Shown: positions 21,521-56,483 of the stretch, one piece after another
How the letters are laid out: every line of letters begins with the position of its first letter
Position numbering within the stretch: the first letter of the stretch is position 1
Virus record (IMG/VR): IMGVR_UViG_3300029448_000003
Coordinates: 32,001 to 96,000 of that record
Source of the DNA: a virus
DNA length: 64,000 nt
Strand: one strand, 5' to 3'
Made by a program: the position numbers and the translations under genes
The notes under the pieces: model-generated
What the model saw: the letters and a program-made list of their open reading frames with translations, nothing else
What the model was told of the DNA's origin: nothing
Database searches by the model: none

Positions 21521-22201
21521 ATGGCATTTATAAAATTACTAACAAAGGCTGCAAAAAAAGGTGTTAAATCAGCCACTAAAAAAGAAGCAGCTAAAGTAGC
21601 AAATAGATTACAGAAAACTACAAGCTCTGTCGCAGCATCAAAAGGTGTTAAAAGTATGCAAAAGACACTTACGATGGCATTTATAAATAAACAACCACCT
21701 GCTGTAAGAAAAGAACTTATGAAAAGAAGAAAAAAGTTTCTTGCTGATAGAGCAGCTGCAGCAGAAAGCAGAAAAAAAGTTATAGCTAATGCTAAAGCCA
21801 CTGGTAAAAAACTACCTAAATTAAAAGGCAGAGGTATGTCCTTTGAATCTGTTCCAACTAAAAGAGACAAAAGAATAGAAGGTTCAGGTTCACAATCATC
21901 TAGACCTCCGGGTTCTAAGGGTAAAGCTAGTGTAAAATCTGACTCACCTAGAGGAAGTGTAGCAGGTCTGTCAATGGCTGATGCAAGAAAAGCACAGGCT
22001 CGTAAAAATAAACCGGGTAACATTAAAAGTAAAACAGTAGCGACAGCACGAAAATACGATGACTTAATGGTTGGAGTAAAGCGAAGAGCAGTTGCTGCAT
22101 TACGTGCAGGTGACAGAGACAAAGCAAGAAAGATACTTTCAGGCACTGGAATATCAGTTAGTGATTTTATATCCGTAATAAGGCAAAGGGGGAAAATGTA
22201 A
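21521..22201 (+). CDS. Highly basic Lys/Ala/Arg-rich protein
   Basis: AGGGAG RBS; histone H1-like composition. Confidence 0.75.
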   Translation: MAFIKLLTKAAKKGVKSATKKEAAKVANRLQKTTSSVAASKGVKSMQKTLTMAFINKQPPAVRKELMKRRKKFLADRAAAAESRKKVIANAKATGKKLPKLKGRGMSFESVPTKRDKRIEGSGSQSSRPPGSKGKASVKSDSPRGSVAGLSMADARKAQARKNKPGNIKSKTVATARKYDDLMVGVKRRAVAALRAGDRDKARKILSGTGISVSDFISVIRQRGKM

Positions 22202-22608
22202 TGCCACATAAAAAAGGACACACAAAAATAACAAAAAGCGACATGATGAATAAAAAAATTTTAGATAAGATGAATCCTGATATGATTATGAAATATCTTG
22301 TAAAGTTTGGACTCATAGACCCTAAAAAAGATTTTAAGTATGGTGGAAGTGTACAGAAAAAAGCACCTGTTAAATCCGTAACCTACAAAAGGGGTGGAGT
22401 AGTAAAAGCTAAAGATGGTATTTTAATTAATAAACAAACCGATAAAAAAATTGATAGGGGTTTAAAACTTGCGGCACTAAAGAAAAATAGTGACTTAGCA
22501 AAAAGTTCATTAAAAAAACTTCAGTCTAAAAATTTAGTGAAGAATAAAAAGTTATCATCAAATAAAAGTATGCCAATAAAAAAAGGAAGAATGGGCAGAA
22601 AAAAATAA
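22201..22608 (+). CDS. Basic protein with FKYGGSV / YKRGGVV motifs
   Basis: Coupled ORF. Confidence 0.75.
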   Translation: MPHKKGHTKITKSDMMNKKILDKMNPDMIMKYLVKFGLIDPKKDFKYGGSVQKKAPVKSVTYKRGGVVKAKDGILINKQTDKKIDRGLKLAALKKNSDLAKSSLKKLQSKNLVKNKKLSSNKSMPIKKGRMGRKK

Positions 22609-22754
22609 TGAGACTGACTGTTACTCGTATAACTCCTTTAACAAAAACAAAAGCGAGACAGCTATGGCTTATCAATAAAAATAAAAAGAAGAAAAAAAAG
22701 CCAGCGAATAAAAAAGCTGTAAATAAAAAAAAGATACGTAATGTAGGTAGTTAA
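22608..22754 (+). CDS. Small Lys-rich protein, 48 aa (not in ORF track)
   Basis: TAATG coupling; MRLTVTRITPLTKTKARQLWLINKNKKKKKK... Confidence 0.6.
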   Translation: MRLTVTRITPLTKTKARQLWLINKNKKKKKKPANKKAVNKKKIRNVGS

Positions 22755-22931
22755 ATGTTAAAACGAAAACCAAAAAAAGCAAAGAAAAAAACTGTCAATG
22801 AAATAATGGATATATTAAACAATCCAAATAAATATTCAAAGGCAGTTTACCAATCGGCTATTCGTTCTTTTGGAACTATGCAAAGAAAAACTTTTGCCAA
22901 CAAAGGAAAATTAATTAGGAAAAAGAAGTAA
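22755..22931 (+). CDS. Small Lys-rich protein, 58 aa (not in ORF track)
   Basis: Abuts the previous stop; MLKRKPKKAKKK...FANKGKLIRKKK. Confidence 0.6.
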   Translation: MLKRKPKKAKKKTVNEIMDILNNPNKYSKAVYQSAIRSFGTMQRKTFANKGKLIRKKK

Positions 22932-22975
22932 CTACAGGAGACTGGTTAAACTAAATATAGAAAGACACCCCAACC

Positions 22976-23467
22976 ATGATTGACCCCATTACAGCATTGA
23001 CAGCTGCTAGTTCTGCTTACAGTCTTATTAAAAAAGGTTTTGCCGCAGGTCGTGAGATTGAATCTATGACAGGCGATTTAGCAAAATGGATGGGTGCTAT
23101 TTCAGACATTAAGCATGTCGAAAAGCAAGCTAAGAACCCACCACTATTTAAAAAACTCTTTAGTGGTTCTTCTGTAGAACAGGAAGCTATGGATGCTTTT
23201 GCTGCAAAGAAAAAAGCAGAAGCAATGGAAGAAGAGTTACGTAACTGGATTAACTTAACACATGGACCTAATGCATGGTCTGACCTTTTAAAGATGCAGG
23301 CTAAGATTAGGAAGGATAGACAAGAGCAAATATATGCTCAACAGGAAGCTAGAAAAAAAGTTATGAATGTTATAGGTATTGTATTGGCTTCTATCGTATT
23401 AGCCGTGGCTGTTTCTATTTTATTCTATGTTATAGTGACAGGAGTACAAGCAGACCCTAAAGTGTGA
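22976..23467 (+). CDS. Conserved phage protein with C-terminal TM helix
   Basis: MIDPITAL N-terminus, coiled coil, hydrophobic C-terminus. Confidence 0.8.
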   Translation: MIDPITALTAASSAYSLIKKGFAAGREIESMTGDLAKWMGAISDIKHVEKQAKNPPLFKKLFSGSSVEQEAMDAFAAKKKAEAMEEELRNWINLTHGPNAWSDLLKMQAKIRKDRQEQIYAQQEARKKVMNVIGIVLASIVLAVAVSILFYVIVTGVQADPKV

Positions 23468-23471
23468 TAAA

Positions 23472-23654
23472 ATGTTATGGATGCTATTTGTAATACTAAA
23501 CGGAACGGATATACAAGAGAATGTCTACTTCAATGATTTGGATACGTGCCTTGAATATGCACAAAAAATGCAACAACAAGATTTACACCAGCGACAAGCA
23601 GGTGATAAAATTTACCTCAAGGTTTATTGCATACCTAAAAATGCAACTGATTAG
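23472..23654 (+). CDS. Small exported two-Cys protein
   Basis: Hydrophobic N-terminus, F...DTC...YCIP. Confidence 0.65.
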   Translation: MLWMLFVILNGTDIQENVYFNDLDTCLEYAQKMQQQDLHQRQAGDKIYLKVYCIPKNATD

Positions 23655-23669
23655 AGGAAAGAAAATAAT

Positions 23670-23879
23670 ATGTGGATTCCAGTAATAACAATACTATGGG
23701 CATTAGGTGAAAATGCTACGTGGGTAAATTTTCCAATGGTAAATTTTCCATTTACAACACAAGATAGATGTCAAGAATATGTAGCAAGGGTTAGAAGTAG
23801 TATAACTAAAGACCCTCAATATTTAGAAGGGTATAGTGTATGTGTAGAGATACCTAGTAAAAAAGGAGAAGCAACATGA
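23670..23879 (+). CDS. Small exported two-Cys protein
   Basis: Hydrophobic N-terminus, F...DRC...VCVE. Confidence 0.65.
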   Translation: MWIPVITILWALGENATWVNFPMVNFPFTTQDRCQEYVARVRSSITKDPQYLEGYSVCVEIPSKKGEAT

Positions 23880-24916: not shown

Positions 24917-25040
24917 TTGGGATAAAATTAAATTTGATATGTGGAATAAAAGATTTGGCGAAGGAACTAATTTTGATTTAGACTATGGTAAGTTACTTAT
25001 TATAGGTCTATTAGTGTATCACATCTTTTTTCAAGGTTAG
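24909..25040 (+). CDS. Small membrane protein, 43 aa (not in ORF track)
   Basis: MINWDKIKFDMWNKRFGEGTNFDLDYGKLLIIGLLVYHIFFQG; AAGGA RBS. Confidence 0.65.
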   Translation: MINWDKIKFDMWNKRFGEGTNFDLDYGKLLIIGLLVYHIFFQG

Positions 25041-25042
25041 CT

Positions 25043-25315
25043 ATGGTTTTAAAAAGACATCAAAATCCTTCTGGTGGTTTAAACGCTGCAGGTCGAGCAC
25101 ACTTTAAAAAGAAAGACGGCAGTAATCTTAAACCACCTGTAAAAGCAGGAGTTAATCCTAGAAGAGTTTCTTTTGCTGCACGATTTGCAGGTATGAAAGG
25201 ACCTATGAAAAAACCTAATGGTGAACCTACACGTAAGGCATTAGCGTTAAAAGCATGGGGTTTTCGTAATGAGCAATCAGCGAGAAATTTCGCAAACAGG
25301 CACAAAAAAACATGA
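25043..25315 (+). CDS. DUF6321-like basic protein
   Basis: GGLNAAGR, NLKPPV, RR.SF.ARF.GM.GPM, TRKALAL..W. Confidence 0.7.
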   Translation: MVLKRHQNPSGGLNAAGRAHFKKKDGSNLKPPVKAGVNPRRVSFAARFAGMKGPMKKPNGEPTRKALALKAWGFRNEQSARNFANRHKKT

Positions 25316-25590
25316 CAAACGCAAAAAAAGTAATTAAAAAAGTAGTTAAGGGATTAAAAAAAGCTAGTAAATCTCATGCAGGTCAAGCTAAATCATTAGC
25401 GTCTTTAAAATTAAATAAAGGTGGTAGTACTGTAAATAAAGCAGGTAACTATACAAAACCTACTATGCGTAAGAGTTTATTTAATTCTATTAAAGCAGGT
25501 GGTAAGGGTGGTAATCCGGGACAATGGTCTGGAAGAAAAGCTCAAATGTTAGCCAAACAATATAAAGCTAAAGGTGGGGGATACCGATAG
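25312..25590 (+). CDS. DUF5872-like protein, N-terminal half
   Basis: YTKP..R...IKAGGKGGNPGQWSGRKAQ.LA..YKAKGGGY. Confidence 0.65.
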   Translation: MTNAKKVIKKVVKGLKKASKSHAGQAKSLASLKLNKGGSTVNKAGNYTKPTMRKSLFNSIKAGGKGGNPGQWSGRKAQMLAKQYKAKGGGYR

Positions 25591-25838
25591 TGGCATTAGC
25601 TAAACCACAAAGGTCTTTAAAAGCATGGGGAAAACAGAAGTGGCGAACAAAATCAGGGAAGCCATCCAAGCAAACAGGAGAAAGATACTTGCCTACAGCG
25701 GCAATAAAAGCTCTAACACCTGCCCAGTATGCGGCAACGACAAAAGCAAAACGGCAAGGAACAAAAAAGGGCAAACAAGCTGTGAAGCAACCGAAGTCAG
25801 TTGCAAGACAAACAGCAAAATATAGGAGATTTACATAG
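25590..25838 (+). CDS. DUF5872-like protein, C-terminal half
   Basis: QRSLKAW.KQKWRTKSG...GERYLP. Confidence 0.6.
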   Translation: MALAKPQRSLKAWGKQKWRTKSGKPSKQTGERYLPTAAIKALTPAQYAATTKAKRQGTKKGKQAVKQPKSVARQTAKYRRFT

Positions 25839-26242
25839 TGCTTGGACTAAGTTCATTATTAGGACCTATTGCTAATATAGCAGGAACGTATATACAAGGA
25901 AAAGTAGACAAGGCAAAAGCCGAAACAGAAGTAAAAGTTGCTCGTGCAAAAGCTGAAGCAAAAGTTTATGAAACAGAAGCAACCTCAAGTATGTTGAATG
26001 AGCAAAGCCTTACTCAACAAATGGCAGGAAGTTGGAAAGATGAATTTTGGACTTTAATCTTTGGAGGGATATTAGTATGTTGTTTTTTACCTTGGACACA
26101 AGAGTATGTTAAAGAGGGGTTTCTTTTCCTCGAAGAAAATACTCCTAATTGGTTTTCTACTTGCCTATATATTTGTATTGGCAGTAGTTTTGGATATAGG
26201 TTCGGTAAGACAGGTCTTCAATTAATAAATAAGAAGGGGTAA
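25838..26242 (+). CDS. Putative holin (3-TM, GTA-holin-like)
   Basis: SWKDEFW, TM segments, P.W, SFG.R; near the endolysin. Confidence 0.65.
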   Translation: MLGLSSLLGPIANIAGTYIQGKVDKAKAETEVKVARAKAEAKVYETEATSSMLNEQSLTQQMAGSWKDEFWTLIFGGILVCCFLPWTQEYVKEGFLFLEENTPNWFSTCLYICIGSSFGYRFGKTGLQLINKKG

Positions 26243-26245
26243 TCT

Positions 26246-26497: not shown

Positions 26498-26503
26498 TGG
26501 CTT

Positions 26504-26746: not shown

Positions 26747-26751
26747 AGTTT

Positions 26752-26919: not shown

Positions 26920-26920
26920 T

Positions 26921-27364
26921 ATGGGCATAGCAAGTAAACTAGCAAGAGCAATAGCAAAAAAAATACCTAAGAAAAAAGTAGATTCAAAAGGTAATACTAA
27001 AAGCATATTTAGAGGGCAGAGTACTAATCAAGCAAAGACACAAAAACCTACAGAAAAACAAAGAAGATACAGAGTTGGACAAGCAAAGGGATTTCTTGCT
27101 GGTGCAGGTACTGTGTTAACTGTTGGTTCAGCCGTGGCTCTGTATAAAAAAGATGCAACTTTTAGATCACGTTTAGATGCAGCACAGAAAGCAGGGAAAG
27201 CTACAGTTAATTATAAAGGAAGTACCTATAAAGTACCAAAAAATAAAATACCTCTACCTGTTTCAAAACCCAAAACAACACCTAGTAAGCTTAAAAAGGG
27301 TAGCAGGATTAGTTATGCTGAAAGATTTAAAGAAATAGAAGATGAAAAAAAAGGAAAGAATTAA
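26921..27364 (+). CDS. Basic protein with MGIASKLARA leader
   Basis: F...L.AA.KAGK....YKG..Y module; leader shared with 33447. Confidence 0.7.
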   Translation: MGIASKLARAIAKKIPKKKVDSKGNTKSIFRGQSTNQAKTQKPTEKQRRYRVGQAKGFLAGAGTVLTVGSAVALYKKDATFRSRLDAAQKAGKATVNYKGSTYKVPKNKIPLPVSKPKTTPSKLKKGSRISYAERFKEIEDEKKGKN

Positions 27365-27913: not shown

Positions 27914-28942
27914 ATGGCAGAAATGCCCTATAACAACAACCAAGAGCCAACAGGTGAACAACTAGGTATTCCGACACCACCTAGACCTCCTATGGGTACG
28001 GCTACACCAGATGCTGTAGCACCAACACCTGTAGCAACACCTATGCCAGATCAAATGCAAACAGTATCAACACCTAGAGAACAAACAGCCGTTGCAACAC
28101 GAGATTGGCAAGCAGAAATTAATGACTTAAAAAGCCGTATGGAAGAGCAAAAAGCACAGTATATAATGCAGATTGAAATGCTAAAAGCTCAATTACAAGC
28201 TCAACAGAAACCAGCACCTGTTCAAGATGTAGAAGCTGTTCAAGAAGTTGTAACACCAATGCCAACACAACCTGTACAGCCACCACGACAAGGACCTACT
28301 GCTGATCCTAGACCGGCTGTAACACCAATGCCAGCAAAGCCTATCATGCCAATGCTACCAACACTACCTGTACAGCCTAATCCTAGAACTACTGGACAGC
28401 TAGAACTTCTTAAAAAGAAACTTGCTGAACAAAGAAAAACATTTGGAACTATGACACCAGAGCAAAGACGTAATTTTTCTGCTAATCAGAGTATACAAAA
28501 AATAATGTCTAACACTATGCTAGACCCAGTAGAACAAAGAAAAAGAGTACGGCAGGTTAAACTAGATTTAGCACATGCAAGACAAATAGAGCAAATGAGA
28601 AAACAAAATGTGCCACCTACAGTTATTATGGATAGATCATTTAGATACAACCTACAAAAAGCTAGACGTAATGCCGTACCCAATGAGCAAATAAGATTAA
28701 TGATTATGCAACATCAACACAGAAAAAAAATGTTTAGGGCACAAAAAGCAGGTGTGTCACGTAAAGAACTAATGAATATGCAAGCTAGTTTTCAAGTAGA
28801 TGTGCTAAACTATAAAAACCGATTAGCGATGGCAACTAAAAAAATGGATGCACGTACACGTAACAGAGATAGGTATAGGTCAATGTATGAGAGATGGAAA
28901 CAGCAAAGAGCACAGGCAAATAGACCAAGGAATGTAAGATGA
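27914..28942 (+). CDS. Low-complexity Pro/Gln/Met/Arg-rich protein
   Basis: AGGGAG RBS; 342 aa, coupled to the next gene. Confidence 0.7.
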   Translation: MAEMPYNNNQEPTGEQLGIPTPPRPPMGTATPDAVAPTPVATPMPDQMQTVSTPREQTAVATRDWQAEINDLKSRMEEQKAQYIMQIEMLKAQLQAQQKPAPVQDVEAVQEVVTPMPTQPVQPPRQGPTADPRPAVTPMPAKPIMPMLPTLPVQPNPRTTGQLELLKKKLAEQRKTFGTMTPEQRRNFSANQSIQKIMSNTMLDPVEQRKRVRQVKLDLAHARQIEQMRKQNVPPTVIMDRSFRYNLQKARRNAVPNEQIRLMIMQHQHRKKMFRAQKAGVSRKELMNMQASFQVDVLNYKNRLAMATKKMDARTRNRDRYRSMYERWKQQRAQANRPRNVR

Positions 28943-31169: not shown

Positions 31170-33302
31170 ATGGCAGAAGAAGAAAATACAGAAAATGTAG
31201 TTGAAGACCAGTCTATGCATTTAGAAGATGTTAGCTCTATTGATAAAGAAGAACCTTCTTCAGCTAGTATTGCTATTTTTGTAAAAGATAAGTATAAGAA
31301 AGCAGAAGATGCTAGACGAACAGATGAGCAAAGATGGTTACGTTCATATAGAAATTATAGAGGTTTGTATGGTCCAGATGTTCAGTTTTCAGAAGCAGAA
31401 AAATCTAGAGTATTTATCAAGATAACTAAAACTAAAACTTTGGCTGCGTATAGTCAAATTGTTGACGTTTTATTTGCAGGTAATAAATTTCCTATTAGCG
31501 TTGAGCCAACAGAATTACCTGATGGTGTATCTGAAGATGTACATATAGATATAGAAAAACCAAACAAAGAAGATGAGCAACAACAACCTGAATTAGAGTT
31601 TTCAGGAGATGGTACACCTTTACCTAAAGGGTATCGTTCAGGAGTACAACTAGGTCCTATCGAAGAAAAAATAGCTAAGATGGAAAACGTTACTGTGCAA
31701 GAAGGTCCGGGAACTAAGCCAAAGACAGTAACCTATAGCCCTGCTATGATTGCAGCTAAAAAGATGGAAAAGAAGATCATGGATCAACTTGAAGAATCTA
31801 GTGCTTCTAAACATCTACGTAGCACAGCTTTTGAGATGGCATTGTTTGGCACAGGTGTAATGAAAGGTCCTTTTGCTCTAGATAAAGAATACCCTAATTG
31901 GGAAGAAAATGGTGAATACAATCCTGTATTTAAAACAATACCACAGGTATCTAACGTATCTGTTTGGAATTTTTATCCTGATCCAGATTCAAATAACATG
32001 GATGACGCACAATATGTAATAGAAAGACATAAACTTTCACGTAGTCAATTACGTGCTCTTAAAAAAAGACCTTACTTTAGAGAAAACATGATAGATGCTT
32101 GTATTGATATGGGCGAAGAGTATAACAAAAAATATTGGGAAGATGATTTATCTGACTATACTGAAGAAACGGAAATTGACAGATTTGAAGTTATAGAGTA
32201 TTGGGGTGTTGTTGATACACAACTACTTATTGATAACGAAGTTGATATACCAAAAGAGTTAAAAGATTCAGACGAGTTACATGCTAATATATGGATGTGC
32301 CAAAACAATCTTATTCGTGTAGTTTTAAATCCGTTTAAACCTGCTAAAATACCTTATATGGCATCTCCATATGAGTTAAACCCTTATTCATTCTTTGGTG
32401 TAGGCATAGCTGAAAACATGGATGATACACAAACCTTAATGAATGGTTTTATGCGTATGGCAGTTGATAATGCCGTACTATCAGGTAACTTACTTATAGA
32501 AGTAGATGAAACAAACCTAGTTCCGGGACAAGACTTATCTGTATATCCGGGAAAAGTGTTTAGAAGACAAGGTGGTGCTCCGGGACAAGCAATCTTTGGT
32601 ACAAAGTTTCCAAATGTATCTAACGAAAATATGCAGTTATTTGATAAAGCTAGACAGCTATCAGATGAGAGTACAGGGTTTCCTAGCTTTGCACACGGTC
32701 AAACAGGTGTGTCAGGTGTAGGAAGAACAGCAAGTGGTATATCTATGCTAATGAACGCAGCAAGTGGTTCAATTAAAGCTGTTATTAAAAATGTTGACGA
32801 TTATTTACTTAGACCATTAGGTGAAAATCTATTTCGTTTTAATATGCAGTTTGATTTTAATCCAGACTTTAGAGGTGATTTAGAAATTAAAGCTAGAGGA
32901 ACAGAAAGTCTTATGGCTAACGAAGTTAGAAGTCAAAGATTAATGCAATTCCTACAAACAGCTAGTTCACCTGCACTTGCTCCATTTGCTAAGTTTCAAT
33001 TTATTATTAGAGAAATAGCAAAGACTATGGATTTAGACCCTGATAAAGTAACTAATAACATGGAAGAAGCTGAATTACAGGCTAGTATGATGCAAAAGAT
33101 GCAAATGCAACAACAGCCACCTGCAGGAGCAGACCCCAATGATCCAACAGGAGCAGGTGGTGGTACAATAGGAACAGGCATAGCTCCTACCCCAAACGAA
33201 CAAGGATTTACAGGAAATGAACAAGGACAAGGACAAACAGCAGGTGCTGTCACCCCTCAAGAAGTTGGTGGACAACAAACGGCTACTAGACAGTTTCAAT
33301 AA
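31170..33302 (+). CDS. Portal protein (P22-like)
   Basis: 710 aa after TerL; LFGTG..K, FG.G.AE, RTASGISMLM. Confidence 0.88.
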   Translation: MAEEENTENVVEDQSMHLEDVSSIDKEEPSSASIAIFVKDKYKKAEDARRTDEQRWLRSYRNYRGLYGPDVQFSEAEKSRVFIKITKTKTLAAYSQIVDVLFAGNKFPISVEPTELPDGVSEDVHIDIEKPNKEDEQQQPELEFSGDGTPLPKGYRSGVQLGPIEEKIAKMENVTVQEGPGTKPKTVTYSPAMIAAKKMEKKIMDQLEESSASKHLRSTAFEMALFGTGVMKGPFALDKEYPNWEENGEYNPVFKTIPQVSNVSVWNFYPDPDSNNMDDAQYVIERHKLSRSQLRALKKRPYFRENMIDACIDMGEEYNKKYWEDDLSDYTEETEIDRFEVIEYWGVVDTQLLIDNEVDIPKELKDSDELHANIWMCQNNLIRVVLNPFKPAKIPYMASPYELNPYSFFGVGIAENMDDTQTLMNGFMRMAVDNAVLSGNLLIEVDETNLVPGQDLSVYPGKVFRRQGGAPGQAIFGTKFPNVSNENMQLFDKARQLSDESTGFPSFAHGQTGVSGVGRTASGISMLMNAASGSIKAVIKNVDDYLLRPLGENLFRFNMQFDFNPDFRGDLEIKARGTESLMANEVRSQRLMQFLQTASSPALAPFAKFQFIIREIAKTMDLDPDKVTNNMEEAELQASMMQKMQMQQQPPAGADPNDPTGAGGGTIGTGIAPTPNEQGFTGNEQGQGQTAGAVTPQEVGGQQTATRQFQ

Positions 33303-33450
33303 TTACGTAGACTATTTAATAGCAAACCAACACAAAGCTATGGAACAAGCTGATACTAATGTTCTATTGTATAGGACACAGGGAGCGATTTCTGTCTTGC
33401 GTAAATTAAAATATTTAAGAGAAGAAGTAATAGGAGCAGATAAACAATGA
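33217..33450 (+). CDS. Small conserved protein downstream of portal
   Basis: LYRTQGAI..LR.LK.LREEV motif typical of this position. Confidence 0.75.
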   Translation: MNKDKDKQQVLSPLKKLVDNKRLLDSFNNYVDYLIANQHKAMEQADTNVLLYRTQGAISVLRKLKYLREEVIGADKQ

Positions 33451-36400
33451 GTGTAGCATCTAAACTTGCTAGAGCAGTAACTAAAAAACTAACAAAAAAC
33501 ATTACAAAAGATACTCCTGTAGAAAAAGAATCTATACCTGTAAGACCTGTTAATCAATCTAATTTAGAAAAAGTAGGTTTACCTTATAGACACGGTGGCG
33601 AATATATTAATCCTATAACTAAAGAAATATTAACAGATAAAAATGTAGGTGGTGCAAATATTAAAATAAGACCAGAAATGGAAGTTAAAGGCGATAGACC
33701 TCAAGCATCTATGGCTGTAACGGATTTAGATGTGTCTGATATAGGTTCACAAGGCACAGATATAAAAGTTAATTTAGTAAAACCATCAAAAACAGGTAAA
33801 AAAGCTGGATGGGATTGGTTAAATAGAGTAGATGAAAATTTAGATGTTAATACTTTAGTATCTGTTACTAATAGGGGAAAACACTTTTATACTTTAGAAA
33901 CAGATTTTTCTAAAGGTGCTAGATTAAAAACCTATCCTGCTAATAGAGATGAGCCTAGACTACGACCAACAGTTACTGGTAATTTAGAGCTAGGAGAAAT
34001 TATTGGTACTATTAAGCTAAGAGGAAAAGAACATCCTGTATATAATAAAATAGTAACTTACAATAAAGGTGGAGCAGTAATGAAAAAACAAGAAGGGGGT
34101 TTAGCAGACGATGGTGGAACAATAGAAGAAGAATCAGGTAATGAAGTTCCTGTTGGTTCACTTAAAAGCGAAGTAAGAGATGATATTGATGCAAAGCTAT
34201 CAGAAGGAGAGTTTGTATTTCCTGCAGATGTAGTACGTTTTATAGGTTTAAATAAACTAATGTCTTTGCGACAAAAGGCTAAACAAGGGCTTCAACAAAT
34301 GGAGGACATGGGTCAAATGGGAAATGCAGAAGAAGCAACTATGGAAGATAGTGGAGAATGGAATGAAGATGCAATGATAGAACCTGAAGTTAAAATGGCT
34401 CCGGGTGGCTTAGTATCTACTACTAGTAATCAAAGTTCTAGATTTGCAGGACTAGCACCTACACTTGCACCTGTAGAACAACAACCTATGCAAGAAGAAG
34501 ATGAAGAAATATTAGATGTTGAAGAAGATGACATAGACGCAATAGGTGATGACTCTGATGATGAAATATTATCATATGAAGACTTAATGCCAAAAGTAGA
34601 AAACTTATATGGCATTAAACAGTATTATGATCCAAATTCAAAAAGAATATATCGTATTACTTTTATAAATGGTAAACCTACATCGCCTATACCAGATCAT
34701 TGGTTGGCAACAGATTCAGATGAATTTAAAGCTCTTATGAAAGAAGAACAGAAAAAAATAGATAAAACAACTGTTGAAGAAATGAATGGTATCGCACCTG
34801 AAACTGACAACAAAGATACAACAGAAAAAGAAAATGAAGAGAGAAGAGAACACACAAAACAGGTTCTAGGATTAACAGAAACAGCGACAGAAACAGATAC
34901 TATATCATCTTTATTTGGTACAGGTTCAGATGCGTCAAATGATCCTCTTATAAAAAGATTTTCTCGTGGTGTTTTAATGAGTGCTTTAGGAATACCTATT
35001 TGGGCGGCCATTGCCGCAGAAAAATTAGGAGTAACTAAAAAACTAGCAGGTGCTATTGATTCTTTTTTAGAAGGTGATACATCTGAAGAAGTGACAAAAA
35101 CATTAGAAGAAGGAAAGAAAGCCTTAGTGCTATCTGGTGGTTCTTTTGATGATACAGCAACAGGAAAATTTACAGGTGGTACTCAACCTGCTCCTTCTGT
35201 AGAAGAATACTTTGATGGAAAGAAATATGTATATGATGCTTTAGAGGGTAAAGATAAACTTACAGTATTGTTTGGGTCTACGGATACTCGTGGTGGTTTT
35301 GGTAATGTTGGGCAAGAATATTATCTTGAGGGTGAAGATAGAGGTAATAAGCCTATCCTTACAGTAACAGGTCAGATAGGCTATAATGCTGGGGATATGG
35401 ACCCCACTACAGGTGGCATATTTAATAACGCAGGACAGGCTGTAGACATAAGAACAAACAAACTATTAAACGCTTACAATACCTATGATAATTTTGTCTT
35501 GGGTAAAAAACTTTCTATAGAAACAGGATGGTTTGGTGGAGAGATTAGTTATGATACTTGGTCGCAACTTTCACCTGAAGGAAAAGTTAAATACGAGAAA
35601 TACTATCTAGCTTTACAGAGAGAAGGTATTGAAGTAGCTAAATATGGTAGAAACGAAACTCCGTTTCAACACCAAATGAATAAAGTACTTGAAACAGGAA
35701 ATTCTGACGATTTAAAAACATTAGCACAAGCATCTATTGTCACAGATAGTGAAGGTAATGCTGTAAGGTCTTCCGAAAATGGTACTCCTGTAACTTCTAT
35801 GGAAGGTTCTTTCTTAACTAATAACCAAAAAAATCAACTAGCCGATGTCTTAGTTAAGGATTATTTAACAAATTTTGCAACTAATCATAATTATGTATAT
35901 GATATTGATCCAACACAATTTACAGATTCTATAAAGAATAACACTATTAAAAATAAAAATGATTTAGTTAGTGCGATTGCAGAAGCTGAAAATGACAAAA
36001 AGCTTGAAGCTGAATTATTAGCACAGCAAAAAGCTCAAGAAGCACAGCGAAAAGCTCAAGAGAAAGCTGACGCAGCATTTGCAGAGGAAGAAGCTCGTAG
36101 AATTAAAATAGAAGAAGAAGAAGCAAAAGCAGCTGAATTATTAGCACAGCAACAAGAGGAAGCTAGAGTCTATGAAGCACAATTACTTGCTCAAAAAGCT
36201 AAAGCTGATGCCGAAGCAAAAGCAAAAGCTGATGAATTATTTGCACAGCAACAAGCTGATGAAGCTGCTGAGTTACTTGCACAACAGAAAGCCCAAAAAG
36301 CAAAAGAAGAAGCTGACAGACTAGCACGTATAGCAGAAGAAAATAGACTCATTGCTCTTCAACAAGCACAAGATGACAAGGATAATAACGCTAGTAGTGG

Positions 36401-36647
36401 AACTCCATTTACTTCTAATCTAGGTGCTACTGTGACGCAACAAGATATTAGGGATGCTGATACGGCTAGACAACAAGTGATGGATGATAGAGAGGATGAG
36501 AAAGCAGAAAATAGAGGTGGAACATCTGCAGGAGATGCAGGATTTACTGACTCAAGTGGATATAGTGATGCTTTTAACACAGGTGGTTTAACAACTAAGC
36601 CTAAAAAGAAAAGTATGAAGCGTGGTGGGTTAGCTTCTAAGAAATAA
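33447..36647 (+). CDS. Large multidomain virion-associated protein with DDIDAKLSEGEFVFPADVV domain and AELLAQQ coiled-coil repeats
   Basis: Between portal and scaffold; several xxGG motifs. Confidence 0.7.
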   Translation: MSVASKLARAVTKKLTKNITKDTPVEKESIPVRPVNQSNLEKVGLPYRHGGEYINPITKEILTDKNVGGANIKIRPEMEVKGDRPQASMAVTDLDVSDIGSQGTDIKVNLVKPSKTGKKAGWDWLNRVDENLDVNTLVSVTNRGKHFYTLETDFSKGARLKTYPANRDEPRLRPTVTGNLELGEIIGTIKLRGKEHPVYNKIVTYNKGGAVMKKQEGGLADDGGTIEEESGNEVPVGSLKSEVRDDIDAKLSEGEFVFPADVVRFIGLNKLMSLRQKAKQGLQQMEDMGQMGNAEEATMEDSGEWNEDAMIEPEVKMAPGGLVSTTSNQSSRFAGLAPTLAPVEQQPMQEEDEEILDVEEDDIDAIGDDSDDEILSYEDLMPKVENLYGIKQYYDPNSKRIYRITFINGKPTSPIPDHWLATDSDEFKALMKEEQKKIDKTTVEEMNGIAPETDNKDTTEKENEERREHTKQVLGLTETATETDTISSLFGTGSDASNDPLIKRFSRGVLMSALGIPIWAAIAAEKLGVTKKLAGAIDSFLEGDTSEEVTKTLEEGKKALVLSGGSFDDTATGKFTGGTQPAPSVEEYFDGKKYVYDALEGKDKLTVLFGSTDTRGGFGNVGQEYYLEGEDRGNKPILTVTGQIGYNAGDMDPTTGGIFNNAGQAVDIRTNKLLNAYNTYDNFVLGKKLSIETGWFGGEISYDTWSQLSPEGKVKYEKYYLALQREGIEVAKYGRNETPFQHQMNKVLETGNSDDLKTLAQASIVTDSEGNAVRSSENGTPVTSMEGSFLTNNQKNQLADVLVKDYLTNFATNHNYVYDIDPTQFTDSIKNNTIKNKNDLVSAIAEAENDKKLEAELLAQQKAQEAQRKAQEKADAAFAEEEARRIKIEEEEAKAAELLAQQQEEARVYEAQLLAQKAKADAEAKAKADELFAQQQADEAAELLAQQKAQKAKEEADRLARIAEENRLIALQQAQDDKDNNASSGTPFTSNLGATVTQQDIRDADTARQQVMDDREDEKAENRGGTSAGDAGFTDSSGYSDAFNTGGLTTKPKKKSMKRGGLASKK

Positions 36648-36657
36648 ATAACCCACA

Positions 36658-36717: not shown

Positions 36718-37587
36718 ATGGCTGAACAAGCTATGACAAAAGAAGTAAAAGTTGAGAAAAAGGCATTTATAAGTAAACCCTATTCTCGTGAAGAAAAAAT
36801 AAAAAAAGACGAAGCAGAACTAGAACAGTTAAAAAAAGAACAAAAAGGAGAAGTTGATGCTAAAGAATCTGTGGCTACCGATCAAGAACCTGATAGTGCT
36901 GAAGAACGAAGTTTCAAGAAACGCTATGGAGATTTACGTAAACATCAGCAACAGCAACAGAAATCTTTGGAAGACAAAGTATCGGCTCTTGAGAATCAGT
37001 TGGAAGAAGCTACTAAGAAAGAAATTAAACTTCCTAAAACTGAAGAAGAAATAGACAAATGGACAACTGAGTACCCTGATGTTGCAGCAATTGTAGAAAC
37101 GATTGCCATGAAAAAAGCAAGAGAGCAATCTAAAACAATGGAAAAACGCATAGTAGAAATAGAAAATATGCGTACTGAAGCAACAAAAGAAAAAGCAGAA
37201 GTTGAGCTTTTAAAGTTTCATCCTGATTTTAATACGATTAGAGAAGAAGATGATTTTCACGAATGGGCAGAACAGCAACCTAAATGGGTACAAGATGCTC
37301 TATATGAAAATCAAGAAGATGCTCGTTCAGCAGCTCGTGCAATTGATTTATATAAAGTAGACAAAGGTATTAAAACTTCTAATAAACCATCTAATAAAGA
37401 TGCTGCTAAATCAGTTAACATAAAATCAAAAGCAGGAGAACCTCTAACAAATGAATCTAAAAATTATTTAAAAGAATCTGAAATACAAGCAATGTCAGCA
37501 AAAGAATATGAAAAACATTCAGAAGAAATTATGGATGCTATTCGTTCTGGAAAATTTATTTATGACATTTCTGGGTCAGCAAGATAA
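36718..37587 (+). CDS. Capsid scaffolding protein
   Basis: FKKRYGDLR, coiled coil, HPDF, F..W...QP, I..MS..EY C-terminus; precedes the coat gene. Confidence 0.85.
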   Translation: MAEQAMTKEVKVEKKAFISKPYSREEKIKKDEAELEQLKKEQKGEVDAKESVATDQEPDSAEERSFKKRYGDLRKHQQQQQKSLEDKVSALENQLEEATKKEIKLPKTEEEIDKWTTEYPDVAAIVETIAMKKAREQSKTMEKRIVEIENMRTEATKEKAEVELLKFHPDFNTIREEDDFHEWAEQQPKWVQDALYENQEDARSAARAIDLYKVDKGIKTSNKPSNKDAAKSVNIKSKAGEPLTNESKNYLKESEIQAMSAKEYEKHSEEIMDAIRSGKFIYDISGSAR

Positions 37588-37619: not shown

Positions 37620-37834
37620 TATAATCGAGTTTAGATTAGCCTAAACGGTGTTTACAACCTAGCTAAACTCAAAATCTCGCAAATTCCAAATAAGACAAAG
37701 ACATACTCTTTAGTATTTGCCCAAATGTTTAATCCGATTGCAACGTATTAAATTATTTGCACCTTATAACTATAGACCTCTCTGAACATGTATGGTATTT
37801 TGCATCTGTTTATGTAAAAGAAAAGGAGATAACT

Positions 37835-38887
37835 ATGGCTTTTACAAAAGTGGCAGGACATGGGAATTTACCTAACGGTAATTTTTCACCTATCATATAT
37901 TCCAAACAGGTACAACTTGCTTTTCGTAAGGGTTCTGTAGTGGAAGCAATAACTAACTCAGATTACTTTGGTGAAATCGCTAACTTTGGCGATACTGTTA
38001 AAGTCATCAAAGAACCTGAGATCACCGTCAAATCATATGCTCGTGGTACAACTATTCAACCACAAGATATTGACGATGAAGAATTTTCTCTTACCATTGA
38101 CAAAGCAAACTATTTTGCATTTAAAGTCGATGATATAGAGGAAGCACATTCGCATGTGAATTTTCAATCACTTGCATCCGATAGAGCAGCGTATAGATTG
38201 AAAGATCAATACGACCAAGACGTTCTTGGTTACTTATCAGGTTTTAAACAATCTGCTATTCATGGCACTCCTGATACTGCAAACACAACAGTGAATGGAA
38301 CTAAGGCTGTTTCAACTGCTGGTTCAAATGAACTATTATCATCTATGTTACTTAATGAAGATGATTTTGGTGGTTCAGGTGGAGCGGCTATAGCCATTAA
38401 ACCTCGTGGTTCTGAAGCGGCACCAACAGCTGCTGGCGATAGAAACCCACTAACTGTGATTGCTCGTATGTCAAGGTTGCTAGATCAACAAAATGTAGAT
38501 ACTGATGGAAGATGGTTAGTTTTAGACCCTGTATTTATTGAAGTATTAAAAGACGAAGATTCTAGACTTTTCCAAGCAGATTGGTCAGGTTCTGGTCTTC
38601 AAAACGGTTTAGTACTTAATAACTTACATGGTTTTAAAGTATACCAATCTAACAATCTACCTTCTGTTGGAACAGGTCCTACTTTTGCAGGAACTAATAG
38701 CACAGATAACTACGGAGTAATTGTTGCAGGACATAGTTCTGCTATAGCTACTGCTGAACAAATCAACAAGACAGAAACTTACAGGGACCCTGATAGTTTC
38801 GCTGATATTGTTCGTGGCATGCATTTGTATGGTCGAAAAATACTTAGACCTGAAGCTCTTGTTAGAGCACAATATCACTTAGCGTAA
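37835..38887 (+). CDS. Major capsid protein (P22 coat-like)
   Basis: F.P.IYS, GEI...GDTV, F.VDDIE, LD.QNV...GRW, RG.HLYG.K.LRPE; AAGGAG RBS before ATG 37835. Confidence 0.92.
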   Translation: MAFTKVAGHGNLPNGNFSPIIYSKQVQLAFRKGSVVEAITNSDYFGEIANFGDTVKVIKEPEITVKSYARGTTIQPQDIDDEEFSLTIDKANYFAFKVDDIEEAHSHVNFQSLASDRAAYRLKDQYDQDVLGYLSGFKQSAIHGTPDTANTTVNGTKAVSTAGSNELLSSMLLNEDDFGGSGGAAIAIKPRGSEAAPTAAGDRNPLTVIARMSRLLDQQNVDTDGRWLVLDPVFIEVLKDEDSRLFQADWSGSGLQNGLVLNNLHGFKVYQSNNLPSVGTGPTFAGTNSTDNYGVIVAGHSSAIATAEQINKTETYRDPDSFADIVRGMHLYGRKILRPEALVRAQYHLA

Positions 38888-49819: not shown

Positions 49820-51343
49820 ATGCCAATAGGATATGCAAGTCGAAATGACACATCTAATAACATTGCTTCAGGACAAGTATTAAATGCTGCAGATTTAGAT
49901 GGAGAGTTTGATGCCATTCTAGTTGCTTTTAACAGCACGACAGGACATACGCATGATGGTGTGTCAAGTGGTCAAGGAGGTCCAGTTTCAAAAGTAGGTG
50001 AAACGGTTGGTGGGGATTTAGAAGTTATATCTTCTGGTATATTTCCAACAGTAACAGCTACTTTAGATATAGGTAAACCTACTGCAACGTTTAATAACAT
50101 CTATATTGGAGATAATAAATACCTTTATATAGGAGCAGATTCGGATTATAAACTAGGTTATAGTTCATCTGATACTGCTTTTTGTATTGAAGCTGCTAAT
50201 TCTCAACCTATTGATATACGTTTAAAAGCAGATAGGGGTGATAATAATGGTGATATATGGGTACTAGAAACATTAGATAGTTCAGGTGGTGGTGATTTTG
50301 TATTAAAAAATAATATTTCTGGTAGTTTTGTTGATATGTTTAAAATAGACCCTCATTCTACTGCTACGTCTATTGAAACTACAATTACAGGTTCATTAGT
50401 TACTACACACGACATGACATTAAAAAATGATGGTGCAATTTTAGGTTTTGGTGCAGATACAGATACAACTCTAACACACACAGACGGAACAGGTTTAACT
50501 CTTAATGGCACAAATAAGTTAACATTTGGAGATGCCGCTAGTTTTATACATCAAAGTTCCGATGGTACTTTAGTTATAGATGGTGAACAGGAAATTCATT
50601 TAGATGCTTCAACACAAGTATCAATAACTACACCAAAACTAAAATTAGATAGTGATGGTGCTTATATAGGTTTTGGTGCAAATAATGAAGTAACACTTAC
50701 TCATGTTCATAATGATGGATTAAAACTTTCTGGTAATGACCAATTACAATTTGGTGATAGTGGCACGTATATTCATCAATCTGCTGATGGTGTTCTTGAT
50801 TTAGTTTCAGATACAGAAATAGAGATTAATGCTAATACAGTAGATATTAATGCTAGTATAGATGTATCAGGTACGTCTTTGTTTGCAGGAGCTACAACAC
50901 ACTCTGCTGGTATTCAAATAGCAGACGGTGGTACAATTGGGTCTGTAAGTGATACAGATGCTATGACTATTTCTGGTGCAGGACTTGTCACATTCTCAAA
51001 ACCTGTTGTACCTGCAACACAAACGGCAGCATTTAGTTCTCTTTCTTCAGGTGTATTAAACTTTGATAGTTTTCAAAATTTTGTAATAACTTTAGGAACA
51101 GGTACAAATACTTTTGGTGCACCTACTACTGAAGCAGGAAATATAGGTCAAACAGGTACGCTTATTTTAGTGCAACCTTCAGGTGGTACAGCAGGTACTG
51201 TATCAATGCATGCTGATTACAAAACAATTGGAAACGCTACTATATCGCTTTCAAGTGGAGCATCTAAAGTTGATCTTATTCCTTACATTATTCAATCAGA
51301 AAATAATATTCTATTGGGCAACACAGAGTTAGATTTCTCATAA
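49820..51343 (+). CDS. Tail fibre protein
   Basis: A.DLD.EF.AI..AF....GHTHDG; internal repeats FGA..(D/E).TLTH and L.FGD....IHQS.DG. Confidence 0.75.
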   Translation: MPIGYASRNDTSNNIASGQVLNAADLDGEFDAILVAFNSTTGHTHDGVSSGQGGPVSKVGETVGGDLEVISSGIFPTVTATLDIGKPTATFNNIYIGDNKYLYIGADSDYKLGYSSSDTAFCIEAANSQPIDIRLKADRGDNNGDIWVLETLDSSGGGDFVLKNNISGSFVDMFKIDPHSTATSIETTITGSLVTTHDMTLKNDGAILGFGADTDTTLTHTDGTGLTLNGTNKLTFGDAASFIHQSSDGTLVIDGEQEIHLDASTQVSITTPKLKLDSDGAYIGFGANNEVTLTHVHNDGLKLSGNDQLQFGDSGTYIHQSADGVLDLVSDTEIEINANTVDINASIDVSGTSLFAGATTHSAGIQIADGGTIGSVSDTDAMTISGAGLVTFSKPVVPATQTAAFSSLSSGVLNFDSFQNFVITLGTGTNTFGAPTTEAGNIGQTGTLILVQPSGGTAGTVSMHADYKTIGNATISLSSGASKVDLIPYIIQSENNILLGNTELDFS

Positions 51344-54300: not shown

Positions 54301-54468
54301 CATCAACTTTGGAGTGGAACGTCTACTTTTCCAACAACAGTACAGTTTAAACACGATGGAATTTATATGCACGGTGCACCTGATCCATCGCCTTCAAATG
54401 GAACAACAGGATATTATATAGTCTGTGCATGGGCAGACATACCGTTTAAATATGCGAGTGGATTTTAA
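51343..54468 (+). CDS. Large receptor-binding/lectin-like virion protein (ConA/LamG plus SPRY-like)
   Basis: WMHIV, FIDGQAL.P..FG, D.SGNGNH, DSPTN.F, SGKWY.E, NFGQ, PPSGFLAMC, AGFSIVT, HGLG..P. Confidence 0.8.
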   Translation: MAGLGTFFFGVPRVYPHQIQQSLKLGGANFWYTTEMYNNNEDHLLGRRHYLAKTYESASTSTACTIATWWKPYQDNIAYLGGGTHNIFQAYTSGTWSGSVEDTTFASLYFTARENSNPVIGQNPALARQFFITGGNDTYSTGGGSLELIAVTNGDCVIRRTVQDFVIDTNWMHIVCRMDTTNGTFNIYINGEDQALRTDNGGSNWTSLVECPSDSTSLAFGQNCIHYIGGNTAKANGSPPRKFAWQDQSIGLADFHFIDGQALEPKHFGRRNEYGLWVPKDTSNINFGANGCRLDFSDKNNIGNDISGNGNHYNADLAIGQAITPTTLETGYPAGVHNYSKDSPTNTFCVLDNPGATNNFSDFYNHAETGSILGTSLWSSDNEDLRISRFSNWLLRSGKWYVEFHSPSWVEHAVIGIQRATNYIFGQSINSNVTGFGRGTLAFYNGSGGSGANNGQYIESVDTSIATALAGSGISNFSDVVALKIDLESNTKSVELVKCNADNTFTSIQSLNISNDLLNYDFNEGVPFRIFITGKFIYEDVGNSWDNTAHANFGQDSTFNGFKPSGSHNATDENGHGNFHNTPPSGFLAMCSSNAPNPSIAVDDGRINSFKSHFDVIRYSVPAQATLGNGETLNITKQSKIKPDFVMLKDLSSSGGIKFWDSSRGANKMLSTDEDAVESTNDADGYISSFNGGGFTLTGGSNSADNVYNSHNSNINNYVAMCWKANGGVTTTNDASETGIGTLDSTYQANTDAGFSIVTFNRNGGGLVAHGLGKKPAFILMKSLTADSSTAWGSDQPVTVFHKYSAFDWDAYNSGTDTTTFNYNGNWKHDSIGPEEVIMSFSSDATGAELDRKTISNTDIRLGAWKDSDGGTDDPTSTTFSVTDKQGTISSNVNAVAYCWAEIPGYSAFTGLYAPNFANIGNYLFVPLGFRPKFVIMKPMFGQEEWSMFTDEISESTNNFSTKFHHYISTPFNQSTDNVGTTTTTGHQLWSGTSTFPTTVQFKHDGIYMHGAPDPSPSNGTTGYYIVCAWADIPFKYASGF

Positions 54469-54469
54469 T

Positions 54470-54703
54470 ATGGAAATAAATCCTATACTATTTTGGAATG
54501 GAATACTTACAGTTGTAATAGCACCTGCTATATGGGTTTTTCGTGGTATGTTTGTAGAAATAAAAAGACTTGACATACTATTAAATAAAACAAGAGAAGA
54601 ATATGCAAAACGTGATGACGTTAAAGAAGATATGCATACTGTAATGGATGCTCTTCAAAGATTAGAAGATAAATTAGATAAAATATTAATAGGAAATAAA
54701 TAA
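54470..54703 (+). CDS. Small TM plus coiled-coil protein
   Basis: Start MEINPILFWN; ILLNKTREEYA, RLEDKLD. Confidence 0.7.
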   Translation: MEINPILFWNGILTVVIAPAIWVFRGMFVEIKRLDILLNKTREEYAKRDDVKEDMHTVMDALQRLEDKLDKILIGNK

Positions 54704-54714
54704 AGGGGAATATT

Positions 54715-56235
54715 GTGGCAGAACAAGTAGTCGATAACAATTTATTAAGTGGTTTAACAGAAGGTGTAGCAGAAACGGTAGTATCGGATAAAAGCACAAC
54801 AAACCTAACAGAAGGTACTGAAGGAGATGATGCAGGAACAAGTGTAGCCGAAGGAACGACAGCTTTAGGTGAAAAAATAGCAGATCGTGCACAAGACCCT
54901 TCTTTCGATGAAAATGACGGCAGAAAATTTGAAACGGTAGATTTCTCAGAAAAAGATAAATCCGATGGTAAAATTTCTGATAGCACATATGTTGGTGCAG
55001 ACGGTCAAACCTATAGTAAAAAAACTGGACAAGTTGTTGGAGTAATTGATACGACAACAACAACAGTAGATGGTGCTCAACAAGCAAATGTTCCAACAGA
55101 TGACTATGATATAGAATCGGAAGACGAAGAATTAGATGATCTTGCTAAAATAGAAGCTGCTCAAGCTACAATGACAGCAGATGAAAAACAAGCTTATGCT
55201 GATGCTTTAGCGGCAGGTCAAGCTACACCTGATGAACTTGCTACAATTCAAGGGCAACTTAAAGGTTTAAACGCAGACATACAGGATGGTACAGTTCCTT
55301 TGTACTCAAAGGGTGCATACAGAAGTGCAATGAAAACAATGGCTCAAATGGGTCTAGGTGGTTCTATGATGGCAAGTGATTATGTCTATGGTGCTGTTAT
55401 GGAATCTCAAATGCGTATTGCAGAAAAAGATGCAAATGTATTTGCTGAATATGGTTTAAAGAACGCATCTAATGCACAGATGGCACATTTAGCAAAAGCG
55501 GCAGCTCTGTCTTCTATTAACATGGCAAACTTAAATGCTAGACAGCAAGCTAATGTAGAAAATGCAAAAAATTTTTTAAAAGTACAATTAACTAATATGG
55601 ACAATGAGCAACAATCAAAAATATTTAATGCTCAAATGCAACAAACTTTTATGCTCTCCGATCAAGCGGCAGAAAACGCGGCAAAAAACTTTAATGCTTC
55701 ATCTGAAAATCAAGTAAAAATGTTCTACGATAATTTAACGTCAACGGTTGAACAGTATAATGCAGGACAAGTAAATGCTACTAATCAATTTAATGCTGGA
55801 CAAACAAATTCAATGGAACAGTTTACTACTAAAATGAATGATTTACGTGAGCAATTTAATGCCGCAAATCAATTGGTTGTTGAACAGTTTAATGCACAAT
55901 GGAAACAAAATATTGCTACTACAGAAAACGCTCAAGACAATGCTGCGAATGAAACAAATGCTAAAGCTTTACTTGACATTTCTAATACATCCTATGCTAA
56001 TCTATGGAATCAAATGAGTGATTTAATGGAGTGGGCATGGACAAGTGGAGAAAATGCATCAGATAGAATACACGAAATGTCTATGGCTGAACTAGATGCT
56101 AAAATGAAACAGTATATGTCTGATATGGATTATAGTGTAGCAGAACGAGAATCTCTTGGTGGTATGTTTTCAGATATATTAACAAACCCTGTTGCAGGAT
56201 CAATACTTACTAAATTTATAGGATGGATTTCATAG
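54715..56235 (+). CDS. Putative internal virion/ejection protein (Asn/Gln/Ala repeats)
   Basis: Repeated QFNA motifs. Confidence 0.65.
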   Translation: MAEQVVDNNLLSGLTEGVAETVVSDKSTTNLTEGTEGDDAGTSVAEGTTALGEKIADRAQDPSFDENDGRKFETVDFSEKDKSDGKISDSTYVGADGQTYSKKTGQVVGVIDTTTTTVDGAQQANVPTDDYDIESEDEELDDLAKIEAAQATMTADEKQAYADALAAGQATPDELATIQGQLKGLNADIQDGTVPLYSKGAYRSAMKTMAQMGLGGSMMASDYVYGAVMESQMRIAEKDANVFAEYGLKNASNAQMAHLAKAAALSSINMANLNARQQANVENAKNFLKVQLTNMDNEQQSKIFNAQMQQTFMLSDQAAENAAKNFNASSENQVKMFYDNLTSTVEQYNAGQVNATNQFNAGQTNSMEQFTTKMNDLREQFNAANQLVVEQFNAQWKQNIATTENAQDNAANETNAKALLDISNTSYANLWNQMSDLMEWAWTSGENASDRIHEMSMAELDAKMKQYMSDMDYSVAERESLGGMFSDILTNPVAGSILTKFIGWIS

Positions 56236-56246
56236 GAGAATAAAAA

Positions 56247-56483
56247 ATGATGAACAATTCAGGTAGAATATTATATGCTAGGCTTAGTCCTTTTGTGGAC
56301 AAAGAAGCTGTAGACGATAAACCCAAAGAAACAAAAGGGTTAATGACTAAAAAATATGCACAAGGGGGTTTGGCTACAACACAAGAAGAAAAACCTGTTG
56401 CAATAAAAGTTATAGATTATATGCGTTCAGTTAGAAATAGCATGAAGGTACAAAAAGAGGAGAATACAGATGGGATTCAGTAG
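56247..56483 (+). CDS. Small virion-associated protein
   Basis: AGGAG RBS; KGLMTKK and YAQGGLA motifs. Confidence 0.65.
   Translation: MMNNSGRILYARLSPFVDKEAVDDKPKETKGLMTKKYAQGGLATTQEEKPVAIKVIDYMRSVRNSMKVQKEENTDGIQ

Follow-up and report, generated by a model that had tools for sequence, protein, structure and literature searches.

Why should a phage repeat one short peptide, a Gly-Gly pair between hydrophobic residues, on otherwise unrelated late proteins, and set two copies of it around a conserved segment of the gene that follows its portal gene? The question is raised by a 64,000-nt stretch of viral DNA (the window; positions 32,001 to 96,000 of IMG/VR record IMGVR_UViG_3300029448_000003) from an HMO-2011-type marine podovirus. 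A sequence-only reading had proposed that this peptide, here called the tag, serves in cleaving or loading internal capsid cargo, that the segment between two tags of gene 33447 (genes are named by their first position) is a domain that reads them, and that the 33447 protein is a self-processing polyprotein. We find that the tag is a real recurrent element at the protein level and that the segment, here called the core, is related to a module of tape-measure proteins. Our preferred reading, to which we give a probability of about 0.45, is that the tags serve for docking or as addresses on proteins stored in the particle and ejected through the tail, with the core a conduit or portal anchor that becomes ordered in assembly. 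From the earlier proposal the tag recurrence, the bracketing and the tape-measure likeness have stood, and the reader domain and the self-processing protease have not.

Recurrence of the tag

Every peptide listed in the sequence-only reading is present in the open reading frames (ORFs) of the window where it had been placed, including two weaker ones, AKDGIL in 22201 and ANKGKLI at the C-terminus of the protein encoded at 22755-22931. Searched with a loose pattern, [FYLMIVW]..GG.[VLITA], the window holds 18 matches compared to 12.6 expected (P = 0.09). Because a pattern fitted to the eight window instances is post hoc and carries no weight, we trained a position matrix solely on the tags of homologues of 33447, whose consensus is [F/Y/M]-[N/A/Q]-x-G-G-x-[V/A] with a hydrophobic or small residue at position 6. 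In window proteins other than 33447, this matrix finds 5 matches where 1.76 are expected (P = 0.035), an enrichment that is suggestive, not decisive. The tag-bearing features of the window are as follows.

33447..36647, + strand: post-portal gene (1066 aa); its product has the tag-core-tag module, a double tag at the C-terminus and, at residues ~845-985, a long coiled coil
34059..34079, + strand: upstream tag YNKGGAV of 33447 (residues 205-211), matrix score 8.5, its offset from LSxGEFV conserved at about -60 to -40
34395..34415, + strand: downstream tag MAPGGLV of 33447 (residues 317-323), matrix score 9.4, at a conserved offset of +60 to +79
36573..36593, + strand: penultimate, C-terminal tag FNTGGLT of 33447; spacing to the last tag in the family, 14-18 residues
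36615..36644, + strand: terminal decapeptide MKRGGLASKK of 33447, containing the last tag (MKRGGLA), with the stop codon directly after it and DNA-pattern matches in relatives
22201..22608, + strand: 135-aa hyperbasic protein of net charge +31, whose tags are FKYGGSV (22333-22353) and YKRGGVV (22384-22404)
22755..22931, + strand: 58-aa basic protein whose C-terminus, FANKGKLIRKKK, is a degenerate tag with a basic tail
25312..25590, + strand: basic 92-aa protein of phrog_17747, with tag LNKGGST (25411-25431) directly before its conserved domain
56247..56483, + strand: 78-aa protein in the internal-virion-protein gene cluster, with tag YAQGGLA (56355-56375), matrix score 5.5

In 80 related contigs, ORFs on the same strand that lack the core hold 103 matrix matches compared to 21.5 expected (z = 18, measured against composition-preserving shuffles). 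The opposite strand holds 1 match compared to 0.4 expected; the enrichment is thus confined to the late strand. Enrichment over background had been named beforehand as the test, and the tag does recur on unrelated late proteins, namely the post-portal, 25312-type and hyperbasic proteins. Among 150 homologues of 33447, tags stand at fixed offsets from LSxGEFV (-40/-60 before it and +60 to +79 after it), and two tags lie at the extreme C-terminus. The core and free-standing tags co-occur in every related genome examined.

The Gly codons of the tags vary (GGT-GGN) and avoid GGAGG, indicating that selection acts on the protein. GGT encodes the first Gly of 75% of the tags, and GGA is underrepresented (5% compared to a background of 22%). 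These values rule out a Shine-Dalgarno artefact, in which KGG would be encoded as AAAGGAGG.

That the tags are a product of chance or composition, such peptides being frequent words in glycine- and lysine-rich proteins, is extremely improbable. The loose-pattern count and the two window tags that lack orthologues would fit chance; the z-score in relatives, the fixed positions in homologues and the conserved placement in the 25312 family do not. For the family chance is refuted (matrix P = 0.035, z = 18), and it could account only for single instances such as FKYGGSV. No homologues of 22201 or 56247 were found in cultured phages or IMG/VR, and YAQGGLA and FKYGGSV therefore stand outside any comparison of orthologues. 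In the literature, we found no paper describing the tag or the hyperbasic miniproteins discussed below, and the comparative paper on HMO-2011-type phages does not mention them.

A core shared with tape-measure proteins

What, then, is the segment between YNKGGAV and MAPGGLV? The bracketing had been pointed out from the sequence, and the two tags indeed hold conserved positions in homologues. Residues 245-263 of the 33447 protein, within the core, read DDIDAKLSEGEFVFPADVV.

34092..34340, + strand: conserved core (residues 216-298), with inner degenerate GG tags, SGNxVPxGS, VRDDI(D/P)AxLSEGEFVFPADVV and a helix ending in MGQMGN

The core is nearly invariant, with 37-42 invariant columns in our alignments (A1 and A2); its invariant polar residues are S, N, E, D, D, S, E, E, D and R. 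At E < 1e-3, residues 196-328 as query matched 2855 representative clusters, and 431 of these fell below 1e-30; the matches have 60-77% identity and occur in proteins of 130-1600 aa, at any position within them.

The core matches PHROG families of tape-measure proteins (phrog_5448 at E = 1e-4), in agreement with the likeness to the tape-measure module that had been noticed by eye. One homologue, P0012, carries both variants of the module. Its second copy is of the tape-measure type (GPGTETSDDIPAMLSDGEFV) and matches about 12 tape-measure PHROGs as well as the solved tape-measure chains 8zdo_S and 8rk3_A. This variant is also matched by tape-measure proteins from 60+ cultured phages. Their unit is built as in 33447, from [hydrophobic]-x-x-GG-x-[hydrophobic], (D/S)IPAxLSxGEFV, a helix and a second [hydrophobic]-x-x-GG-x-[hydrophobic]. 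The same tag-core-helix-tag layout occurs in the tape-measure proteins of Burkholderia phage SBP33, Gordonia phage PokyPuppy, Vibrio phage LV6 and lambda (gpH), and profile-level sequence matches cover siphophage tape-measure C-termini (lambda gpH/gpHC, JBD30 gp46 residues 1022-1066, Burkholderia phages, Vibrio phages and actinophages). In the tape-measure proteins examined (lambda gpH, SBP33, LV6 and JBD30) the module is found in the C-terminal region; further matches lie inside other long tape-measure proteins. In lambda gpH, FATGGFT at 733 and GEFV at 754 are followed by YATGGYV and by a further tag at the very end (MRDGGLF...). Because tape-measure proteins share the whole unit, the bracketing tags are integral parts of one old module, and not substrates lying beside a reader.

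The post-portal gene of pelagiphage HTVC115P combines a tape-measure-type module with a C-terminal MAKGGLL, and it follows a 45-aa hyperbasic gene whose repeats (MMGGGMM, MMHGGAI) resemble the tag more weakly. Gene 33447 itself, lying between portal and scaffold in a podovirus, does not qualify as a tail-length ruler. The D-D-I-P-A-x-L of the core (DDIDAKL, window 34179-34199) presumably also resembles the conserved D-I-P-A-F-L at the C-terminus of FtsZ, although the key Phe is not kept.

We considered whether the GEFV segment could nonetheless be a folded reader or protease domain that acts on tags in cis and in trans, with 33447 processing itself. The core has no match in Pfam or NCBIfam even at E = 10, its profile has none among PDB sequences, and no enzyme was matched by family or by solved structure. 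AlphaFold2 models of the module, made with 27 and with 127 sequences, had a predicted local distance difference test (pLDDT) score of 58 both times, were confident for one helical stretch only (65-94) and left the flanking tags undocked, which speaks against an autonomous reader fold. Such a domain would account for the many invariant polar residues and for the joint presence of core and free tags in the related genomes, and the catalysis of tape-measure cleavage is not established. Given the models, the lack of an enzyme match and the constant presence of both bracketing tags in the module of tape-measure proteins as well, we regard this explanation as improbable.

A hypervariable post-portal protein

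Among HMO-2011/CRP phages, gene 33447 is conserved only at residues about 205-325. The parts of this hypervariable protein that persist are the tag-core-helix-tag module and the C-terminal double tag with its lysine tail, and the tags fall at the borders between conserved and variable parts. For the variable part of the window's own protein (residues 380-850), an orphan, only 2 homologues were found. An ESM Atlas search yielded no more than unnamed viral clusters and, at 0.78, a weak lead to crAss cargo; residues 490-850 gave nothing, and a word search with the C-terminal 45 residues gave only 6 matches. An N-terminal ASKLARA-type leader is common to the 26921 and 33447 proteins.

Homologues of 33447 carry fused methyltransferase, ART-PolyVal, LPD23, Phage_lysozyme2 and L5_gp82 domains. 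Polyvalent proteins, for which packaging and injection have been proposed (Iyer et al. 2017, PMC5512222), bear several effector domains per phage polypeptide and are encoded beside the packaging genes. The fusions to methyltransferase, ADP-ribosyltransferase and lysozyme domains suggest that the 33447 product is a polyvalent, ejected protein encoded behind the portal gene, hypervariable in its cargo, which is probably injected.

The gene occupies a position between portal and capsid, where prohead proteases often lie, as the sequence-only reading had remarked. That position is correct, but neither a peptidase profile nor catalytic residues in a globular fold accompany it. Searches of Pfam, NCBIfam and PHROG gave no peptidase signal in 33447 or in the other late proteins scanned, which is at odds with a self-processing polyprotein. 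The slot between portal and scaffold is equally that of MuF/gp7, and the effector fusions of homologues, with the lack of a peptidase signal, lead us to read it as such rather than as a protease slot; no match to PF04233 (Phage_Mu_F) was found in 33447.

Tags and proteolytic processing

A separate explanation is that the tags are proteolytic processing sites, at which the post-portal protein and hyperbasic precursors would be cut during assembly by a host protease or an unrecognised one. The position of the 33447 tags at conserved/variable borders is compatible with this, as is the maturation of two tape-measure proteins. T5 pb2 is cleaved after R1127 (PMC10038345). The site reads FVPR|AEGGMMY, so that the released pb2C begins at the GG element and cleavage beside tags is conceivable. 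Lambda gpH loses a C-terminal fragment of ~14 kDa, gpHC, whose site and catalyst are not established (PMC12617516). A size-based estimate places gpHC at roughly residues 690-853; it would start near or just upstream of FATGGFT (733) and contain the whole module.

The details of the tag fit such a role poorly. The scans of 33447 and of other late proteins turned up neither a protease gene nor a peptidase signature. If the tags were cut, their hydrophobic residue would fall at P5 and N/A/Q/K at P4, whereas adenain, PLpro and double-glycine leaders have the hydrophobic residue at P4; a cognate cysteine protease was likewise not seen among the late proteins scanned. A tag three residues from the free C-terminus, with only K/R after it, makes little sense as a cut site. 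The T5 site is a single mapped case, and it has Arg where the tag has F/Y/M. We therefore consider processing at the tags unlikely.

Small basic proteins bearing tags

Many of the matches in related contigs are hyperbasic proteins of 40-250 aa with 2-5 tandem tags, for example KKKG-YAKGG-MMKKK. Their genes lie early in the late operon and their tags are biased to the C-terminus; 14 small ORFs in relatives end in a tag followed by a K/R tail. Lys makes up 29% of the tag flanks in small proteins compared to 6.6% in the background, and the tags repeat every 10-14 residues. In the window, 22201 lies where relatives encode their tag-repeat miniproteins, upstream of the terminase gene in the early part of the late operon. 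The HMO-2011 genome contains an unannotated 50-aa hyperbasic ORF (record 50628-50780, minus strand; L071:248-400) with two MMRGGMA tags, which differs from a metagenomic relative by 7 synonymous and 3 non-synonymous codons. In the gene cluster that includes 56247, HMO-2011 gp25 carries MAKGGMI and MQTGGSV. In the 25312 family, the tag precedes the conserved part in 9/16 homologues from related contigs, directly so in five, and is absent in the rest. Scans of the tag-repeat miniproteins and the large late proteins against PHROG and Pfam gave no function and no protease, and neither 21521 nor 22201 showed homology to HMO-2011 gp68 beyond the tag itself.

Very basic proteins (net charge +17 to +46) are encoded upstream of the terminase gene at 21521-22931, 25043-25838, 26921-27364 and 27914-28942. 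We also observed a natural fusion (L022:4928-5398) of a 25312-type domain (GQWSARKAQ...GGGY) with a 25590-type domain, suggesting that the two neighbouring small basic proteins work jointly.

Lysine-flanked tags might bind nucleic acid or acidic membranes directly, without a specific protein partner, in which case the miniproteins would be protamine-like condensers or cationic lysis or entry (disruptin-like) peptides. The lysine content of the flanks, the net charges, the 10-14-residue repeat and the location of the miniprotein genes near the lysis cassette all agree with this. The tags that flank the module, however, lie outside a basic context, and actinobacterial phages have the same tags in their tape-measure proteins. 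Furthermore, residues -3, -2, +2 and +3 of the tag are conserved, which together with the strict C-terminal placement argues for a specific pocket. Direct binding of this kind is in our view doubtful.

A hairpin over the last tag

A degenerate DNA pattern for MKRGGLASKK matched at least 119 viral contigs. The stop codon follows immediately in 121 of the 122 in-frame matches, and 102 proteins carry the core. Even at synonymous sites the last decapeptide hardly varies; codon choice is free in the other tags. A conserved hairpin covers the same codons.

36625..36656, + strand: conserved hairpin over the last tag, 8 base pairs with a 12-nt loop (alignment A3)

The 5′ arm consists of the G-G-L codons, and the 3′ arm consists, in relatives, of the stop codon and the next bases; in the window it lies a few bases past the stop codon. 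On 64 distinct contexts, 91.8% of cells are paired compared to 34-45% with the structure slid. In 15 sequences the Leu codon (TTA/CTA) covaries with the stop codon (TAA/TAG), and the stem and loop geometry is kept where the protein tail is one residue shorter. Because a covarying hairpin overlaps its codons, the extreme conservation of the last tag is dual, of peptide and of nucleic acid. The hairpin might act as a terminator, serve as a processing site or mark the border of a cassette. On its 3′ side, upstream of the ribosome-binding site of the scaffold gene, come one or two (T/A)TGGCTAC boxes.

Gene order and the two genomes of the record

The assignment to the HMO-2011 type follows from the capsid protein, which is 77% identical to that of Puniceispirillum phage HMO-2011, and from gene-for-gene matches to HMO-2011 for the terminase, the portal, the scaffold-position protein and most replication genes. 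The late strand runs through small basic genes, lysis genes, the large terminase gene 29589, portal gene 31170, a small ORF (33217), gene 33447, the phrog_13678 scaffold-position gene 36718 and the capsid gene. Relatives conserve the order of large terminase, portal, small ORF, core gene, scaffold-position gene and capsid gene.

31170..33302, + strand: portal gene (PF23899, phrog_332/1216)
36718..37587, + strand: phrog_13678 protein in the scaffold position
37757..38887, + strand: major capsid protein

The record of 110,914 bases (G000) contains two diverged HMO-2011-type genomes. HMO-2011 gp22 is matched twice (window 107-2575 and 58904-62338), as is MazG (2582-2998 and 62339-62734), and the corresponding stretches are 1-2998 and 58904-62734. 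The post-portal gene of the second genome, at G000:C1 about 7741-9111 (L207:1480-2850), encodes a protein of 456 aa that is otherwise different and keeps the N-terminal tags, the core and the C-terminal FMKQGGLASKKK. The word VKAKDG is common to this protein (VIVKAKDGQDI; L207:1480-2850) and to the 22201 protein (VVKAKDGIL).

Docking as the preferred reading

If the tags are docking or address elements, each would be a short linear element, probably forming a tight Gly-Gly turn that pairs two hydrophobic residues. It would mark proteins that are kept in the virion or the DNA conduit and are then ejected through the tail. The core would be neither a reader nor an enzyme; it may be a segment that is ordered only in the oligomer or on a conserved putative partner, for which the portal, the channel lumen and the scaffold are candidates. 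It can be likened to a hook in the JBD30 tape-measure protein, formed by residues 1022-1066 and predicted to anchor the protein in the baseplate lumen (PMC11445458); these residues are the module. A C-terminal tag with a basic tail would put cargo and small basic proteins on a shared partner or on packaged DNA.

Several points weigh on the other side. Packaging of the 33447 protein and of the small basic proteins is a proposal made from the genes, and the partner of the tag is hypothetical. Alternatively, the abundance of lysine around the tags could point to simple binding of DNA or membranes. The invariance of the decapeptide is partly a nucleic-acid constraint, imposed by the covarying hairpin over its codons and stop. 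Outside 33447 the enrichment within the window alone is modest (P = 0.035), and the tape-measure proteins of both T5 and lambda are cut close to the same motif. A more sweeping proposal, which we hold to be distinctly unlikely, would make the Gly-Gly tag a universal address and processing code for virion-leaving proteins; it would govern the maturation of tape-measure proteins (of gpH to gpH* and gpHC, and of pb2 to pb2* and pb2C) and load protamine-like miniproteins and the exchangeable effector cargo of HMO-2011-type podoviruses, and the hairpin, a dual-coded RNA element at the end of the cargo gene, would mark a cassette border.

Known systems resemble the arrangement in part. Tape-measure proteins share the module, are ejected through the tail and, in the case of lambda gpH, end in a further tag. 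Unlike in tape-measure proteins, the 33447 module is found in a podovirus post-portal gene, has a longer insert (SGNxVPxGS) and far higher conservation, and is accompanied by free-standing tags on other proteins. MuF/SPP1 gp7 and polyvalent proteins are also encoded directly downstream of the portal gene, combine a constant anchor with effectors that are swapped among homologues, and are presumed to be packaged and then injected, as we propose for 33447. Unlike MuF, 33447 gives no match to PF04233, and its constant part is a tape-measure-type module with a C-terminal peptide.

The capsid targeting sequence of T4 and the loading peptide of encapsulins are likewise short portable peptides on unrelated cargo. 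In T4 the sequence stands at the N-terminus and gp21 removes it; the tags here are often at the extreme C-terminus and accompanied by basic residues. They have no sequence relationship to either peptide. The encapsulin peptide, also C-terminal, binds the inside of an HK97-fold shell; a resemblance of the tags to it is presumed, and what they demonstrably share is C-terminal placement on unrelated proteins. Tape-measure cleavage, too, is known from other phages; in this one cleavage and packaging are putative. In T5 the GG element comes immediately after the cut site, and in lambda it is close to the site estimated above.

HMO-2011-type phages are among the most abundant viruses of seawater. 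Their post-portal gene has been annotated only as hypothetical, and it now has a defined constant part, putatively for docking, on swappable, probably injected cargo. The analysis also adds tiny hyperbasic genes with tag repeats as a new class, a member of which had gone unannotated in the reference genome of HMO-2011, and draws a direct sequence link to tape-measure C-terminal fragments. As the motif is a simple peptide, it makes the question of tape-measure processing accessible to mass spectrometry and mutagenesis.

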